The notes under the pieces were generated by a model. The model had not been told where the DNA came from and did not search any database. It was given only the letters and a program-made list of their open reading frames with translations. From Promethearchaeota archaeon (GTDB lineage: Archaea; Asgardarchaeota; Lokiarchaeia; Sigyniarchaeales; SOKP01), in contig JAEOUA010000003.1 in assembly GCA_016839555.1 (NCBI GenBank), positions 256,001 through 320,000 on the forward strand: DNA of 64,000 nucleotides. The letters run 5' to 3'. This document shows positions 41,866 through 48,932 of the stretch, piece by piece. The first letter of the stretch is position 1; every line of letters begins with the position of its first letter. A program made the position numbers and the translations under genes.

Positions 41866-42792
41866 TTAAGCTCGTTTTATAACTACTCCTGGCTTTTTCT
41901 TATTCTGTTTTCTATGTTTAATTACGATCTGACCATTCACAAGTACATAAGATATTCCTTCGGGAATTTGATAAGGTTTTTCATAGGTTGCTTTATCGAT
42001 GATTGTATCAGGATTAAATATCACGATATCTGCCCAGTAATTCTCTAAAAGAAGCCCTCTATCTTGCAATCCCAATCTCTGAGCGGGAAAGGAAGTCATT
42101 TTACGAATAGCTTGTTCTAAAGTTAAGAGTTTTTCCTCCCTTACATATTTACCCAGAATTCTCGGATAAGTACCAAAACATCGAGGGTGAAACGCACCAC
42201 TACTGAATGAAACAGGAATGCCAAATGCCCCCGCTTCCATGGCCTCCCTAAGATAGCTTTTCATGCGCTCCATTTCATCCTGTGTAGCATCTCTGTTTGC
42301 TCTTCCTTGACCGCCAGCAAATCTTAGATTTTCATAACCCACTAAGAAAGCAAGATTAGCAGAAGGTCGCTTTTTCTGTAAATATTCTAAATATTCCGTA
42401 AAAGTATGATAAGGATAGTCAAATTGTCCAAGAATTGCGTCAGCTGAGGCCATAATTTTTTTAAATTCTTCTTCTTTACCTTCAGGGATTGGTGCCATAC
42501 CGAGTCCGCACATTCCTACCACATTAGTTGTGATTCCTTGATGAAGAGTAGATTCTAGATTTCTGCTAATTAGCAATATATAATCCGAATGAGAATGAAT
42601 ATCAATAAATCCAGGAGAGACAATCTCATTAGAAGCATCAATTATTTCTCTTGCTGTTCCAACTATTTTTGTCCCGATTTTTACAATTTTTCCCTCATTA
42701 ATTCCTATCTCTCCATAATACCATGGATTTCCTGCTCCATTTATAATCTTACCATTTTTGATTATAAAATCATAATCCATATTTTTTCCCAT
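41866..42792 (-). pseudogene. N-acyl-D-amino acid deacylase with a large in-frame internal deletion
   Basis: PGFIDIHSH and G-x-CG at the N-terminus, HPR..GTYPR and ADIVIF at the C-terminus. AMEAGAFG is joined directly to IPVSFSSGAFHPR; 308 aa versus roughly 500+ for intact family members. Confidence 0.75.
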
Positions 42793-42934: not shown

Positions 42935-43330
42935 TTGTCAAAAGTAAATACTTTATCAGAAAAGGAGTATAGAAAAATGGAACCTATAGGAATAGTATTT
43001 TTATTTAATATGAAAGAAGGGACACCTCAAGATGTGTCAAAAAAGTTTAGTGATTATTTTTCAAGTGTAACCGAAAATCTTGTACGGCAAGGGCTTCTTG
43101 AATTAGTAAAGTTAAAAGAGATTATGGATGAAAATAAAATCTTTTGGGGAGGAATCAAGAAAGATTTTGAGAAGGTTCTTCAAAATAATGAAATGATTGG
43201 AGATTTGGCATGGCAAGTATTTAAAAATCACACAAACATCGAACCATCGGAGGATGTAAAATGCTTGATATATGATGGTGAAAAAGCACCATGGAATTTT
43301 ACATTAATGGTATGTGTTTTATATAAATAG
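42935..43330 (+). CDS. Hypothetical protein
   Basis: 131 aa ORF with host-like codon use; no motif recognised. Confidence 0.7.
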   Translation: MSKVNTLSEKEYRKMEPIGIVFLFNMKEGTPQDVSKKFSDYFSSVTENLVRQGLLELVKLKEIMDENKIFWGGIKKDFEKVLQNNEMIGDLAWQVFKNHTNIEPSEDVKCLIYDGEKAPWNFTLMVCVLYK

Positions 43331-43404: not shown

Positions 43405-45144
43405 TTAAATATCATAACTACCAGAATCTCGCATTATTTCAAACATTTCCTTCTCATCTTCTTCTGCTTCTTCGGGAATAGCATATATTGTTCCAAATAA
43501 AGACGCATGATATTGTATTCTAGCAGCAAACTCAACTTGTTGTAATACAGTATAAGCATGCTTCATATTGGTACCGCAACAGACATTTCCATGATTGGGA
43601 AGAAACACAGCATAATTATTTCCTAGAGCTTGTACAGCTTTGAGTGCGATATCTTCGGTTCCCGCCATTCCATATTCTGCAACTTCACATCCCCCAATAA
43701 AAGGAATAATTTCATCTACTATAGGTCCTAATCGCATTCTTGCAATAGAAAGGATAGTAGAATATTCTGCATGAGAATGAATGACAGCATTTATATCTTC
43801 TCGAGAGAGCATTATATACACATGTAGGTGTTTTTCAGAAGTAGGATTCCGTTTTCCCGCTAGAATCTTTAGAGTTTTATCTACTAATACTAAATCATCT
43901 TCCTTCATATTTTCATAGCGAACAGTGCTTGGTGTCATAAGGAAGCCATCCTCTCCATTAGGCAACTTCACTCTCATAGAGACATTTCCTGCGGTCCCAA
44001 TAATAAATCCTTTATCCAACATAACGTTGCAAATATCAATTATTTCTTTACACTGTTTTTTATAGCTTGATAATTCTATTGGAATTTCTTTTCCTTTTTC
44101 CGGAATAGGAATTTTTTCGGGAGAATAACCCGGAAGAACTTCTGGATTAACTATATTCGAGGGAATTTCATTATTAAGTATTTTTTTAATACCATCAACC
44201 ATCATTATTCCATTATTATGATCCGTTTCAAAAGTATCTCCTCCTATATGAGGGGTTACAATTACATTATCTAATTCTAAAAATTCATTATCTTTATCAA
44301 TAGGCTCGATATTGAATACATCTAAAGCGGCACCTGCTATTTTCTTTTCTTTTAAAGCATCAAATAGTGCAAATTCATCTGTTATTGATGCACGAGCGAA
44401 ATTTATAAAAAAACTAGTTTTTTTCATTAAATTTATTTGTTTTTCCCCAACCAACCCATCAGTTTCGTCCGTAGGGGGACAATGAATTGTAACAATATCA
44501 GAATTTGCCATTAAAGTATCGAGATCCACTAATTTTCCATTTATATAGTTTAATCTCTCCTTAATTACATAAGGATCATACACCAGGAAATTTACTTCAA
44601 AAGCTTTCAATCTTTTTGCAATTTCAAATCCAATTCTTCCTAAACCGATAATCCCAATAGTCTTACCTTTTAATTCGTGCCCTTGAAACATATTAAAATA
44701 ATCGAGATAATCTGAAAAATCTTCCACTTTAAAGTTATTTGAATGGAGGACGTGTTCAACCCTATGGAGTTTACGTATTAAAGCAAGTATTGCCGTTATT
44801 GTCATTTCAGCAACAGCATTAGTATTTCTACCAACTGCATTAAGAACGGGTATACCTAATTTCGTTGCGGTCTCAATATCAATATTATTTGGATCACCAC
44901 GAGTTGAGCCAATAATTTTTAGGTTTACATTCTCTAAGACATCCTTTTTTACATTATCTCCTTCGCAGATAAAAATATCAACATTTAAATCTTTAATTTT
45001 CCTTACTAAATCTTCTGCATTAAAGTATAATTTCTTAGTTTCTCGCCAACTCTCATAAATAACTTTATCTCCCGTTAGTTCCTTGAGTTTTTTTAATGAT
45101 TCTGGAGAGATTTGAGCGGTTATGTAAGTTTTCATAAATCTCAC
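43405..45144 (-). CDS. Fusion: D-2-hydroxyacid dehydrogenase (YoaD-like) plus class II aldolase
   Basis: N-terminal half: RGDPNNID, GRNTNAVAE, GLGRIG, NFAR, DVF..EP, TPHIGG. C-terminal half: GNVS, TPS, PTSE..LH, HSH, PNHG. Likely start ATG 45135. Confidence 0.9.
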   Translation of the reverse strand: MRFMKTYITAQISPESLKKLKELTGDKVIYESWRETKKLYFNAEDLVRKIKDLNVDIFICEGDNVKKDVLENVNLKIIGSTRGDPNNIDIETATKLGIPVLNAVGRNTNAVAEMTITAILALIRKLHRVEHVLHSNNFKVEDFSDYLDYFNMFQGHELKGKTIGIIGLGRIGFEIAKRLKAFEVNFLVYDPYVIKERLNYINGKLVDLDTLMANSDIVTIHCPPTDETDGLVGEKQINLMKKTSFFINFARASITDEFALFDALKEKKIAGAALDVFNIEPIDKDNEFLELDNVIVTPHIGGDTFETDHNNGIMMVDGIKKILNNEIPSNIVNPEVLPGYSPEKIPIPEKGKEIPIELSSYKKQCKEIIDICNVMLDKGFIIGTAGNVSMRVKLPNGEDGFLMTPSTVRYENMKEDDLVLVDKTLKILAGKRNPTSEKHLHVYIMLSREDINAVIHSHAEYSTILSIARMRLGPIVDEIIPFIGGCEVAEYGMAGTEDIALKAVQALGNNYAVFLPNHGNVCCGTNMKHAYTVLQQVEFAARIQYHASLFGTIYAIPEEAEEDEKEMFEIMRDSGSYDI

Positions 45145-45168
45145 TTATTCTTATTTAAAATTTAGTTA

Positions 45169-46041
45169 TTAAAACATCAATTTTCGTAATTTTAATAAAT
45201 TCCTCATTTTTCCAGAAACTTCCAACTCTCCACTTGAATAAGCTTTTATCGGATTGATCTGCTTTGTCATCATCTTAATAAAGATGTTTGAACTCAGTTT
45301 TACTTGAACTGCAGCTTCTTCATCATATCCTTCCATTAAAGTTATTCCATGATCATTATCGATTTTGTACAAATATGATTGATTAATATCTGGAAAGCTC
45401 ATCATTAAGGTTTCGTTCCATTTTTGAAATGATTTCGCAACTTTAGGATCATTATATCTATCCACAATCTTTTGAAGAGCTTCTTCAAGTGTTATTTCAA
45501 TCCCCTCCTCTGTAGCGATATCACTTTTTTCAGGACTTGGTTTAGACGTTACAGCCGCAGGCTCTCTGCTGATTGCTTTTTCAGCTTGTTGAATTGGGGG
45601 GGATACTTTTGCTGCAGCTCGAACTGATTTCGATACAGGAGCTTCCTCTCTTTCAATCATGGGAGGACGAATAACAGTTAATCCGCCGCCAATCCCTGAA
45701 GATCTTTTGATACCACTTTCAGAAATTTTCTCTTCCGTTTGTATAACCACTTCTCCAGAGAGTATAGCTTCAATTACCTTTTTAGTTTTTTTTAATAAAC
45801 TAATTGATTGAATCGCGGCCAAAAAAATTAAGATTAATCCAAGAATTATAATTATTATTGCTAATCCGTTAAATAATCGGAGATTTATCCTTAGCTCGTA
45901 AGATATTTCTAAAAGATTGACACTAAATAACAATCCAATAAAAATCAATGCTATTCCAGTAAAAAATAAGGATATTAATGCAACTATCATGTGAACATTT
46001 AATGATTGTAGAATATTTTTTCTATTAGTAGACGAATTCAT
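45169..46041 (-). CDS. Membrane-anchored SCP2 sterol/lipid-binding domain protein (2 TM, low-complexity linker, SCP2)
   Basis: Two N-terminal TM helices, Pro/Ala/Ser/Glu linker, C-terminal INPIKAYSSGELEVSG SCP2 motif. Confidence 0.82.
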   Translation of the reverse strand: MNSSTNRKNILQSLNVHMIVALISLFFTGIALIFIGLLFSVNLLEISYELRINLRLFNGLAIIIIILGLILIFLAAIQSISLLKKTKKVIEAILSGEVVIQTEEKISESGIKRSSGIGGGLTVIRPPMIEREEAPVSKSVRAAAKVSPPIQQAEKAISREPAAVTSKPSPEKSDIATEEGIEITLEEALQKIVDRYNDPKVAKSFQKWNETLMMSFPDINQSYLYKIDNDHGITLMEGYDEEAAVQVKLSSNIFIKMMTKQINPIKAYSSGELEVSGKMRNLLKLRKLMF

Positions 46042-46123
46042 AATTTATTTAATAATTTTGTATTGTTATAATTTATTATAAGAATTTATATTGATATAGT
46101 TTATTTTAATATTTTATATTGAT

Positions 46124-47692
46124 ATGACTGACTATAGATTGGTTTATGATACGGGCAGTAAATTAGTAAAATGCGTTATAGCAGATGATCTAGGGCATAT
46201 AATGGCCTTGGAATCGTGGAAACCAGAGGTGATTGAAAGCCCGGATGGTTTTCAACGAGAATGGAATTATAGAACATATTGGGATAATTTAATTGAATTA
46301 ACTAAAAATACAATTACAATAGCTAAAATTAATCCAAAAGATATTAAATATATTACTTCTTCCTCTATTCGTCCGAGTTGTGTATTTACGGATGAGAATA
46401 ATGATACTCTTTATATTGGGGCGAGTTTCGAGCTTCGAGGAATTGATTATGCAGATGAAGTAGAAGAAGATTTTTATAATCGGGCAGGAAAAACAATTTA
46501 TGAGAGTTCTGGACATTTTCCATCGCTATTATTACCACCCACTCGATATAAATATTTTCAAGAAGAAATAAAAACGGATGATAGAATAAAACAAATAACC
46601 CAATATGTTCCGCAAGATAGTTGGATTCTTATAAAGTTGGGGGGAGAGGTTCATGCAAATATTGTTAGTGCGGGAGAATCAGGTTTTCTAGATTTGGAAA
46701 CTAAATTATGGCATCCCGCTTGGAAAGATATATTTAATTTACCAGAATATTTTTTTCCATGGCCAGTTCTTCCTGGAGAAATAATTGGCACCGTTTCTGA
46801 GCAATATCAAGAAAAATTAGGCTTAAATTCTGAAGCTAAGCTCATAGCGGGCCTTCCGGATACTCAGGCAGCATTATTAGGAAGCGGATGTATAGAAAAA
46901 GGATCAATTGGGGCTGTATTAGGTACAACAACTCCAGTCCAAATGGTTACTGATAATTTAATTATTAGCTCTGAGGAAACAACTTGGTCCGGGTTAATGA
47001 CAGCAAAAAACCTATTTGATAAATATTATATTGAAGCTAGTACAGGGTTAACTGGTCAATTGTTAATATGGGCTGCAAAACTATTTTTTTCAGATAATAA
47101 TCTTAGCTTAAAGCAGAAATTCAAAGAATTAGATAATGCATATCAACGGTACGATCAATTTGAAGCACAAGCAACTCAAGAACAAATAAGAGAGACTTCG
47201 GTCTATGCATTTTTAGGGCCTTCACCATTGGCAAGTACTCAGATGGGCATAACTCCAGGGCTCTTTCATTTTCAAAGTCCTGGAGGAGTTGAAGAAATCA
47301 CAAGCAATAAAGAATCCTTTATCGCAGCTGTTTTCGATAATATTCAGTTTGCAATTATGGGAAATATAGAATTTTTAAAAAATAAAATGAATTCTATAGA
47401 TCATTCAATTTCAATTATGGGTGGAATTACCCGTAATCCCGTATTATTGCAGCGATTTTCAGATTTATTAGGAACTTCAATAAGCACATCCAGAAGTTTT
47501 GAGACAACGATAGAAGGTATGCTCGTATTATGCGATATTGCTGCTGGAAATATTCAATCCCTTGGAGATTTTAAAAAAAGAGTTCAAAATCAGCAAGAAT
47601 TAGATAAGATTCACCCAAGAAATGGAATGAAGCAAAAATTATCTGTCAGATATACTGAATGGCAAAGATTATTTAAACAGTATAGAGAATAA
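46124..47692 (+). CDS. FGGY family carbohydrate kinase (YoaC/LsrK-like)
   Basis: YDTGS, TSSSIR, GEIIG, PDTQAALLG, LGTTTP, MGG motifs. Confidence 0.85.
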   Translation: MTDYRLVYDTGSKLVKCVIADDLGHIMALESWKPEVIESPDGFQREWNYRTYWDNLIELTKNTITIAKINPKDIKYITSSSIRPSCVFTDENNDTLYIGASFELRGIDYADEVEEDFYNRAGKTIYESSGHFPSLLLPPTRYKYFQEEIKTDDRIKQITQYVPQDSWILIKLGGEVHANIVSAGESGFLDLETKLWHPAWKDIFNLPEYFFPWPVLPGEIIGTVSEQYQEKLGLNSEAKLIAGLPDTQAALLGSGCIEKGSIGAVLGTTTPVQMVTDNLIISSEETTWSGLMTAKNLFDKYYIEASTGLTGQLLIWAAKLFFSDNNLSLKQKFKELDNAYQRYDQFEAQATQEQIRETSVYAFLGPSPLASTQMGITPGLFHFQSPGGVEEITSNKESFIAAVFDNIQFAIMGNIEFLKNKMNSIDHSISIMGGITRNPVLLQRFSDLLGTSISTSRSFETTIEGMLVLCDIAAGNIQSLGDFKKRVQNQQELDKIHPRNGMKQKLSVRYTEWQRLFKQYRE

Positions 47693-47815
47693 TTTTATTC
47701 TTAATCAAACTCAAAAATTTAAAGTATCTATTTAGGTTTATTTTTTCTCTAAAAAAGATTACCTCTTTTTTTAAAAGCTTCAAAGAGAAATAAGTTATTA
47801 AAGTGAAAATATTGA

Positions 47816-48166
47816 TTAAAACATCAATTTCCTTAATTTCATTAAATTTTTAATGCTTCCCTCCACGATCTTTATCAGACCACTTGAATATGCTTTAATA
47901 CCTCCTATCGAACCATTAAACATATCCATTAGTACTTGTTCCTTTGTAAAATCAATTTTCACAGGAGCATTTTCATCCCCAGTATTATCTTTCACTTCAA
48001 TTCCTTGATCTCCATTAATGAGAAGGAGGGCTTTTCTATCTGTATCTAAAAATCTCATTTGGATGGGATCATGGAATGAACTTAATTTATCCCTTGCTTT
48101 TTCATTTTCATTATAGCGGCGCTCTATTTCTTTTAAACACTCTTCTACATTCTTAAAATCTGCCAT
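47816..48166 (-). CDS. Soluble SCP2 sterol/lipid-binding domain protein
   Basis: GGIKAYSSGLIKIVEG..KNLMKLRKLMF; paralogous to the C-terminus of 45169..46041. Confidence 0.8.
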   Translation of the reverse strand: MADFKNVEECLKEIERRYNENEKARDKLSSFHDPIQMRFLDTDRKALLLINGDQGIEVKDNTGDENAPVKIDFTKEQVLMDMFNGSIGGIKAYSSGLIKIVEGSIKNLMKLRKLMF

Positions 48167-48293: not shown

Positions 48294-48932
48294 TTATTCA
48301 CTTCTTTCAAGGTATTTTCTAACAACCTCGCCTCTGGGTTCTGTTTCCTCGAAAAGTATAGCTGAAAATTTATAAATTTTGGTATCATCGTCTTTCCATG
48401 CATCTGTTGAAAGCCAAGCTTTTCTACAAGTTTGTTCTAGAAATGTTTTTGCATCCCAGTTCCTTCCGTGTTCCACTGGTACTTGTGGTAAAAGGAGACC
48501 TCTTCTCATCCCTCTTTCAACGATAAGTCCATCCCTTCCAATTTCTATATGATCAAAATATTCTTGAGGATAATCAACTTCAATAAGCTTTGGAGGGGTT
48601 AAGATTGAAATTTCTATTACAATATTATCCATTTCCTCAAGTGATACTGATGGAAATCGGGGGTCTTCGCATGCTGCACTCACAGATACTCGTTTTACAA
48701 CTTCACATAGTTTATATTTAGGTTCTATATAGCCAATACATCCTCTTAAAGGGTTTCCACTCACATTAGTTTTATTAAGCGTTACAAAAGCACCGCATTT
48801 ATCCCCAAAAAGTTCTTCAAATTCCTCTGGATAAGAGAGTCTTTTTCCCGTTTTTAAATAATTCTCAATATTTTCTCTGATATATATTATTAAATCCTTC
48901 GCATGCTCTAAAGTTATATCTATCTCAGACAT
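48294..48932 (-). CDS. AMMECR1 domain protein (TIGR00296)
   Basis: GAFVTL, LRGCIG, DPRF, EISIL, GLLLPQV. Confidence 0.94.
   Translation of the reverse strand: MSEIDITLEHAKDLIIYIRENIENYLKTGKRLSYPEEFEELFGDKCGAFVTLNKTNVSGNPLRGCIGYIEPKYKLCEVVKRVSVSAACEDPRFPSVSLEEMDNIVIEISILTPPKLIEVDYPQEYFDHIEIGRDGLIVERGMRRGLLLPQVPVEHGRNWDAKTFLEQTCRKAWLSTDAWKDDDTKIYKFSAILFEETEPRGEVVRKYLERSE

Follow-up and report, generated by a model that had tools for sequence, protein, structure and literature searches.

SCP2 proteins linked to an FGGY kinase and a dehydrogenase-aldolase fusion in Asgard archaea: a candidate route for the breakdown of polyol-ended amphiphiles

The window analysed here, a stretch of 64,000 nucleotides from a Promethearchaeota archaeon (assembly GCA_016839555.1, contig JAEOUA010000003.1, positions 256,001 to 320,000 of the forward strand), contains a module of four genes, coding for a dehydrogenase-aldolase fusion, an FGGY kinase and two SCP2-type proteins. 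The linkage of SCP2 to the kinase, the dehydrogenase and the aldolase, as proposed in an initial annotation made from the letters of the window, was found to be kept in three gene architectures among Asgard archaea, and in bacteria the same domains were identified in a single four-domain polypeptide. Based on protein families, motifs and gene context, the module might be catabolic and remove the terminal three carbons of a polyol-ended amphiphile as dihydroxyacetone phosphate (DHAP), a reading that has, in our judgement, an even chance of being correct. The module would then represent a DHAP-yielding kinase/aldolase route in which the dehydrogenase step is new and a lipid carrier is an obligatory partner.

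Organization and conservation of the module

The fusion gene (43405-45144, minus strand) codes for a protein of 579 amino acids with Pfam matches to 2-Hacid_dh_C (1.6e-56) and Aldolase_II (4.1e-41). A domain similar to phosphoglycerate dehydrogenase (PGDH) comprises about residues 1-340 (44125-45144, minus strand) and is followed by a class II aldolase domain similar to FucA and DrdA at about residues 356-579 (43405-44077, minus strand). Located 24 bp upstream of the fusion gene is the gene for a membrane-tethered SCP2 protein of 290 amino acids, designated SCP2_TM (45169-46041, minus strand; SCP2 8.7e-11 for residues 190-289). The gene for the FGGY kinase (46124-47692, plus strand; 522 amino acids, with FGGY_N and FGGY_C in Pfam) is divergent from the SCP2_TM gene, with 82 bp between the two starts, and is convergent with the gene for a soluble SCP2 protein of 116 amino acids, designated SCP2_sol (47816-48166, minus strand; SCP2 7e-05, above the Pfam cut-off), with 123 bp between the two ends. 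The four genes, domains, spacings and orientations given in the initial annotation all agreed with the open reading frames (ORFs), the Pfam hits and the measured gaps. The names borne by near-identical proteins point to a Lokiarchaeia-type Asgard archaeon as the source.

For the analysis of synteny, 41 relatives were screened, about half of which contain the fusion at full length; 20 loci were taken, and 19 of these were informative. In all 19 informative contigs, an SCP2 gene was identified directly upstream of the fusion or dehydrogenase gene, together with an adjacent FGGY gene. Three types of architecture were distinguished. In type A, which is present in the genus of the window and in families f2, f4 and f7, an SCP2 gene with two transmembrane segments precedes the fusion gene and the kinase is encoded on the opposite strand; SCP2 upstream with FGGY beside it was seen in 4 of 4 loci of family f7. 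In type B, found in the other genera of family f1, AMMECR1, FGGY, soluble SCP2 and fusion follow each other on a single strand. In type C, present in six further families, the parts are encoded separately, with SCP2 first, then the dehydrogenase, FGGY and finally the aldolase, and SCP2 is adjacent in 11 of 14 of these split-gene loci. The kinase gene adjoins the cassette in all loci with room for it. The adjacency of SCP2 to the dehydrogenase or fusion and to FGGY is far beyond chance, and a loss of this linkage in related genomes, which had been named beforehand as an observation that would speak against the module, was not seen. In a sample of the Asgard phylum, 71 of 201 genomes, about a third, contain a match at E <= 1e-90, in a patchy distribution.

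The window fusion was also searched against 1.8 billion representative proteins, and the loci were then confirmed by a genome scan. This revealed giant bacterial proteins of 1220-1485 amino acids (about 1300), in which FGGY_N-FGGY_C, 2-Hacid_dh, one or two SCP2 domains and Aldolase_II follow in this order. At least 510 bacterial genome loci with such a giant fusion were identified, with hosts among the Chloroflexota (including Anaerolineaceae), Myxococcota, Halieaceae, the Mycobacterium kansasii group, Spirochaetales, Binatia and Ca. Uabimicrobium; named hosts are Bellilinea caldifistulae, Halioglobus japonicus, Mycobacterium innocens and M. persicum. The best families of the individual domains are those of the window proteins, namely LsrK and then XylB for the kinase, PGDH and then glyoxylate reductase for the dehydrogenase, and 6btd and FucA for the aldolase.

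The presence of two SCP2 genes in the window is related to the history of the site. The site is marked on one side by the AMMECR1 gene (48294-48932, minus strand), which lies outside the module, and on the other side by orf131 (42935-43330, plus strand), a conserved ORF of 131 amino acids without a Pfam match that is at most a candidate part of the module. It adjoins the fusion gene in seven f1 loci, among which both type A and type B are represented. Counted from AMMECR1, the order in the window is SCP2_sol, FGGY_A (on the opposite strand), SCP2_TM, fusion_A and orf131, and the order in the type B relatives is AMMECR1, FGGY_B, an SCP2_sol-like gene, fusion_B and orf131. Since both types occupy the same AMMECR1/orf131 site, a type A cassette would have replaced the type B kinase and fusion in place. 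SCP2_sol is 51-69% identical to the SCP2 protein preceding the fusion in type B operons, of which it is the orthologue, and looks like an intact leftover of the older FGGY-SCP2-fusion operon. The interleaving of two carriers is thus more probably a product of history than of design, with SCP2_sol as the probable relic of the replaced cassette. The replacement in place argues for a functional equivalence of the two cassette types. Genus g2 contains both cassette types (71% versus 48% identity), from which it follows that the cassette moves between lineages.

In two genomes (G024 and G014; loci L025/L032), two ORFs take the place of the type B fusion, with about 335 amino acids for the dehydrogenase and about 221 for the aldolase. 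A TGA is located at the junction in G024; the division may have arisen naturally or through an error in sequencing, or the stop may be recoded. In two loci only (L027:9979-11937, plus strand; L024), the type B fusion gene is directly followed by that for a protein of 652 amino acids, in which an aldolase similar to dihydrodipicolinate synthase (DHDPS/DapA) is fused to an APH-type phosphotransferase.

Active sites of the enzymes and properties of the SCP2 proteins

The kinase is a member of the FGGY family, with 90.4 and 38.0 bits at Pfam gathering cut-offs of 28.8 and 27, respectively. Its best NCBIfam equivalog models are LsrK (104.5 bits, cut-off 528) and XylB (95.3 bits, cut-off 380), followed by FucK (85 bits, cut-off 471), and all characterised FGGY clades tested remained far below their cut-offs. 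The best match in the PDB was LsrK (5ya0), with only 70 bits. This places the kinase outside the characterised clades, and a position inside one of them, together with an action on free sugars only, was the other finding that had been named beforehand as contradicting the proposal. The likeness of the kinase and the dehydrogenase to Bacillus subtilis YoaC and YoaD, which had been drawn together with the S-box regulation of these genes, is putative and on the family level only; for YoaDC, a role in cysteine degradation has been suggested in the literature, as a guess only.

The dehydrogenase belongs to the D-isomer-specific 2-hydroxyacid dehydrogenases (Pfam domains with 190.9 and 57.2 bits). 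It contains an NAD site, G167-x-G169-x-x-G172 with D190, and the conserved triad R251/E280/H299. Across 23 fusion homologues, E280, H299 and D190 of the NAD site do not vary, and the type B proteins have a lysine in the position of R251. The best NCBIfam model is PGDH (TIGR01327), with 250 bits at a cut-off of 454, so that the protein is not assigned to the SerA equivalog, and glyoxylate reductase is the second-best model with 229 bits. The canonical PGDH loops R-G-G-V...G/S-N are replaced by a subfamily signature, S-R82-x-P85-x-N ... P-R106-N107 in the numbering of the window protein. R82, P85 and R106-N107 are common to the Asgard proteins and the bacterial giant fusions, but occur neither in canonical PGDH nor in any of the five solved structures that were aligned. 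Two extra invariant arginines in the substrate-binding domain would fit an anionic, phosphorylated substrate.

Class II DHAP aldolases of the FucA/DrdA type are recognised by three metal-binding histidines, a catalytic glutamate and a GN(V/I)S phosphate loop. All of these were identified in the aldolase domain, in which E437, H456, H458, H518, G386 and N387 are invariant. Its best match in the PDB is 6btd (106 bits), the 5-deoxyribulose-1-phosphate aldolase DrdA (PMC6079011). The FucA/DrdA equivalogs are not reached (PRK06833, 129 bits at a cut-off of 264; TIGR01086, 98 bits at a cut-off of 400), nor is OtnC (NF043034, 81.6 bits at a cut-off of 250), and FucA-type models outscore those of OtnC, MtnB and AraD. 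The active sites are intact.

Both SCP2 proteins are assigned to the SCP2 family at the Pfam cut-off of 21.3 bits (SCP2_TM with 42.5 and SCP2_sol with 23.6 bits), and both end with KLRKLMF at the C-terminus. SCP2_TM contains two hydrophobic stretches at about residues 13-48 and 49-85, a flexible linker of about 90 amino acids rich in Ser, Glu, Ala and Pro, and the C-terminal SCP2 domain (amino acids 184-290). The AlphaFold model of SCP2_sol (pLDDT 84) was matched best by Foldseek, with a probability of 1.00 and TM scores of 0.66-0.72, to SCP2 from T. thermophilus, human and A. fulgidus and to alkylsulfatase domains, so that the modelled fold corresponds to lipid- and alkyl-binding SCP2 structures. 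SCP2 adjoins flexible linkers in SCP2_TM as well as in the giant fusions, which suggests a non-covalent swinging carrier. At least 13 SCP2 genes are present in the source genome. Other paralogues (loci L033-L041) adjoin genes for two enoyl-CoA hydratases, an M28 peptidase, a URO-D-like protein, a B12-radical S-adenosylmethionine (SAM) enzyme and an FNR-like reductase, and one neighbourhood contains an acetoacetate-decarboxylase-like gene, an FAD oxidase and a major facilitator superfamily (MFS) transporter. Since the paralogues stand beside such varied enzymes, SCP2 seems to assist enzymes quite generally in this organism.

Within the linker of SCP2_TM, which is otherwise variable and disordered, a motif G-L-x-(I/V)-I-R-P-x-M at about residues 125-140 is kept in 10 orthologues of type A, where it could serve for the docking of the enzymes or of a further partner.

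Proposed reaction sequence and alternative readings

In the favoured reading, SCP2, in its membrane-tethered or soluble form, would hold the hydrophobic part of the substrate and offer the polar end to the enzymes. The FGGY kinase would phosphorylate the terminal CH2OH in an ATP-dependent reaction, and the PGDH-like dehydrogenase would oxidise the adjacent CHOH with NAD+ to a ketose-1-phosphate-like end, acting on an X-CHOH-CH2-OP motif as it occurs in 3-phosphoglycerate. The FucA/DrdA-like metal aldolase would then cut the C3-C4 bond, giving DHAP and an aldehyde with the hydrophobic tail, which might be oxidised by an aldehyde:ferredoxin oxidoreductase (AOR) or reduced by an aldo-keto reductase or an iron-containing alcohol dehydrogenase (Fe-ADH), whose genes adjoin the module in other Asgard lineages. 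The substrate would need to be at least a lipid that ends in a 1,2,3,4-tetrol.

In type C operons, the next gene is that for AOR, downstream in 11 loci and in many cases with a Mem_trans permease gene after it; on the upstream side, an ABC-2 transporter gene is located in divergent orientation. An aldo-keto reductase gene is located beside the kinase gene in all four type A loci of family f7. In families f2 and f4, AOR was identified near the cassette in four loci, two of which also contain Fe-ADH and a third SCP2. The recurrence of these enzymes implies an aldehyde as the product, which is the simplest explanation of the Asgard neighbours. The initial annotation had left the choice between aldol cleavage and decarboxylation; the former is favoured, and decarboxylation is less likely in view of the model scores (129 for FucA/DrdA versus 82 for OtnC) and the aldehyde-converting neighbours.

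For the bacterial giants, the neighbourhoods were counted over 80 loci. Acyl-CoA ligase was found in 17 (Mycobacterium, Myxococcota, Halieaceae, Binatia), cytochrome P450 and a KshA-like Rieske oxygenase in 9 each, short-chain dehydrogenase/reductase in 7, TetR in 6, and a 3beta-hydroxysteroid-dehydrogenase-like protein, acyl-CoA dehydrogenase, Amidohydro_2 and glyoxalase in 5 each. Together these make a context of the lipid, steroid or terpenoid type. The giants of the Anaerolineae differ, with a SorC-type regulator, an MFS transporter, an epimerase and an M28 peptidase nearby. A hydrophobic substrate is suggested by these lipid-type neighbours, by the SCP2 fold matches, by the tether of SCP2_TM and by the contexts of the other SCP2 paralogues. 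A route for a lipid-linked polyol, as had been proposed, is thus the best fit to the gene contexts, and the biochemical function itself is a prediction.

M28 peptidases recur beside the giants in Anaerolineae and beside an SCP2 paralogue in the source genome. Radical SAM genes were identified near the module in Halioglobus japonicus (L107:6584-9211, minus strand, 875 amino acids) and at an Asgard locus (L021:2283-3611, plus strand, 442 amino acids).

As to the identity of the substrate, bacteriohopanetetrol would offer the required tetrol end, but hopanoid polyols are a low-probability candidate only. The module would in this case clip C33-C35 off the side chain of bacteriohopanetetrol-type lipids, or of another tetrol- or ribityl-tailed lipid, independently of O2, and yield DHAP for glycolysis and a C32 aldehyde for AOR; we regard this as improbable. 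Synthesis of hopanoids by the host itself was rejected as the source, as the source genome is without a convincing squalene-hopene cyclase (best score 30.6 bits). Among the five bacterial genomes with a giant fusion that were checked, a squalene-hopene cyclase was present in only one, 1.6 Mb from the giant gene. Since the hosts mostly are without this enzyme, a hopanoid substrate would have to be scavenged from outside. C32 hopanoic acids and hopanols have long been known from sediments, and an enzymatic origin for them would be provided if the candidate were true, with Asgard archaea and sediment bacteria feeding on the polar tails of the membrane lipids of others.

Several observations weigh against the proposed amphiphile route. 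D-2-hydroxyacid dehydrogenases normally take 2-hydroxy acids and not polyol phosphates, and lactaldehyde formed in a fucose-like route would be an equally suitable substrate for Fe-ADH and AOR. No aldehyde-handling enzyme is adjacent in the window, and none of the ten AOR paralogues of the source genome lies in it. In three type C loci, no adjacent SCP2 was detected by tblastn. The Bellilinea giant gene is flanked by a SorC/LsrR-type regulator and an MFS transporter, a sugar-like context. In addition, Asgard and giant kinases are only 22-28% identical (dehydrogenases 37-41%), the aldolase domains match weakly, with 60-88 bits, and the Asgard and bacterial modules may be parallel assemblies and not orthologues. 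Orthology of the whole module, as read from these comparisons, is likely but not proven; whether orthologous or not, SCP2 is joined repeatedly to the kinase, the dehydrogenase and the aldolase.

Of the four other explanations that were considered, none accounts for the constant retention of SCP2. A route for soluble carbohydrates of the fucose, rhamnose or pentulose type is possible, if doubtful. Here, the FGGY kinase would give a ketose-1-phosphate, the aldolase would release DHAP and lactaldehyde or glycolaldehyde, AOR or alcohol dehydrogenase would take the aldehyde, and the dehydrogenase would oxidise the resulting D-lactate or glycolate, or a free pentitol or 6-deoxyhexitol phosphate, with SCP2 as a structural or regulatory add-on. 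The pairing of kinase and aldolase indeed mirrors FucK/FucA, glyoxylate reductase as the second-best dehydrogenase model (229 bits) and Fe-ADH as a member of the FucO family would agree with it, as would the SorC-type regulator and MFS transporter at the Bellilinea giant gene, and DrdA-type aldolases accept many aldehydes (PMC6079011). However, this leaves no role for SCP2, which is kept in every architecture and fused into the bacterial enzyme, and the fused dehydrogenase and aldolase would act at non-consecutive steps. The lipid-type neighbours in bacteria would not be explained, every characterised kinase model is far below its cut-off, and neither an isomerase nor a sugar-specific transporter is conserved among the neighbours. 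DrdA as the best structural relative of the aldolase domain and LsrK, the kinase for autoinducer 2 (AI-2), as the best kinase model would also fit the salvage of a SAM- or nucleoside-derived by-product, the alternative named in the initial annotation, by an analogue of the DHAP shunt for 5-deoxyribose, 5-methylthioribose or a compound like 4,5-dihydroxy-2,3-pentanedione (DPD). Radical SAM genes near some loci (L021, Halioglobus) would be in line with it, but they are not conserved in other loci, the LsrK score is a fifth of the cut-off, and neither an MtnA/DrdI-type isomerase nor MtnK/MtnP was found among the conserved neighbours. As small polar by-products would also need no SCP2, this salvage is considered highly improbable.

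A route for sugar acids would be only marginally less improbable than such a salvage. In this case, the kinase would act on an acid sugar of C4-C6, a PdxB/PGDH-like dehydrogenase would form the oxo-acid, and an OtnC-type decarboxylation would give DHAP or a pentulose phosphate and CO2. The preference of the dehydrogenase family for 2-hydroxy acids and the nearly equal scores of OtnC and FucA on the aldolase domain of a bacterial giant (108 versus 108.5 bits) speak for it, and in the known tetronate pathways (PMC12994016) a decarboxylase with the aldolase fold acts together with a dehydrogenase and a kinase. The window aldolase, however, scores 129 bits as FucA/DrdA-type versus 82 for OtnC, an OtnI-type isomerase was not found among the conserved neighbours, SCP2 stays unexplained, and the AOR, aldo-keto reductase and alcohol dehydrogenase neighbours imply an aldehyde and not CO2. 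To our knowledge, tetronate kinases are moreover DUF1537 proteins and not FGGY kinases. The smallest probability of all is given to the biosynthetic direction, in which AOR would reduce a fatty acid to the aldehyde, the aldolase would add DHAP and the dehydrogenase would reduce the ketone, resulting in a long-chain polyol-phosphate lipid on SCP2. The reactions of the aldolase, the dehydrogenase and AOR are reversible in principle, and a membrane-tethered SCP2 could bring the product to the membrane. Yet the kinase would be unneeded when DHAP supplies the phosphate, the bacterial contexts are catabolic (acyl-CoA ligase, acyl-CoA dehydrogenase, TetR, oxygenases), and the patchy spread, with 71 of 201 Asgard genomes, is unlike that of a core lipid pathway.

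Comparison to known systems and adjacent genes

In the literature searched, no paper on the module was found, nor was the combination of SCP2, a kinase, a D-2-hydroxyacid dehydrogenase and a class II aldolase; a paper on Hodarchaeales microcompartments mentions a class II aldolase in an unrelated operon. An adjacent fucA-serA2-xylB trio is presumably present in M. tuberculosis. Among known pathways, that for L-fucose and L-rhamnose (FucK-FucA-FucO/AldA; RhaB-RhaD) likewise pairs an FGGY kinase with a class II DHAP aldolase, and the aldehyde is then reduced or oxidised. In contrast, the module is without an isomerase, contains an SCP2 carrier and, as a fusion partner of the aldolase, an extra PGDH-like dehydrogenase, and its kinase and aldolase are far below the equivalog cut-offs.

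In the sphingosine route, sphingosine kinase phosphorylates the terminal hydroxyl group of the lipid, sphingosine-1-phosphate lyase cuts a C-C bond near the head, and the fatty aldehyde is oxidised by fatty aldehyde dehydrogenase and activated. The release of a small phosphorylated unit and a fatty aldehyde resembles the logic proposed for the module, but the enzyme families are unrelated (the lyase depends on pyridoxal phosphate), and phosphoethanolamine is released instead of DHAP. SCP2 is attached to or partnered with enzymes and presents a hydrophobic substrate also in eukaryotic MFE-2 and SCPx, in UbiJ/UbiT and in the C-terminal domain of alkylsulfatase, whose folds come closest to that of SCP2_sol. 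Their partners, however, are enzymes of beta-oxidation or quinone biosynthesis or sulfatases.

In the DHAP shunt (DrdK-DrdI-DrdA; MtnK/MtnP-MtnA-Ald2; PMC6079011), a class II metal aldolase forms DHAP and an aldehyde from a 5-substituted pentulose-1-phosphate-like compound, as is proposed for the module. The shunt differs in using an MtnK-type kinase and an isomerase on an aldose, whereas the module would use an FGGY kinase and an NAD dehydrogenase on a polyol; the obligatory SCP2 partner and the dehydrogenase-aldolase fusion go beyond it. Neither the MtnK-type kinase nor the MtnA/DrdI isomerase was present in the conserved gene sets, which are limited to SCP2, dehydrogenase, FGGY and aldolase, in part supplemented by AOR, aldo-keto reductase, alcohol dehydrogenase or transporters. 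The tetronate pathways (LtnD/DenD-OtnI-OtnK-OtnC; Ltn3D-3OtnK-3OtnC; PMC12994016) share a dehydrogenase, a kinase, an aldolase-fold enzyme and DHAP as the end product with the module, but have a kinase of another family, decarboxylation as the last step, no SCP2 and no aldehyde-handling neighbours.

If the amphiphile route is true, it would represent an undescribed type of breakdown, in which a non-covalent lipid carrier feeds a line of kinase, dehydrogenase and aldolase and triose phosphate is harvested without oxygen. Asgard physiology would gain a lipid-scavenging trait, and the enzyme behind a classic biomarker transformation in sediments could be identified. The dehydrogenase subfamily defined by R82/R106 and the function of SCP2 would be new to enzymology even if the substrate were soluble. 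Cultured hosts of the giant fusion (Halioglobus japonicus, Bellilinea caldifistulae, Mycobacterium persicum and M. innocens) make the module directly testable.

The neighbouring genes in the window, for AMMECR1, a dihydroorotase, a methyltransferase, a phytoene-desaturase-like oxidoreductase and an amidohydrolase remnant, were excluded as parts of the module, because they represent housekeeping synteny or are not kept with the cassette. The amidohydrolase-family ORF (41866-42792, minus strand; 308 amino acids) matches only the two ends of full-length profiles, with residues 9-68 corresponding to profile positions 2-61 and residues 199-306 to positions 399-512 of 517. It seems to be without the central catalytic barrel, and would be either a remnant or a stand-alone beta-sandwich.

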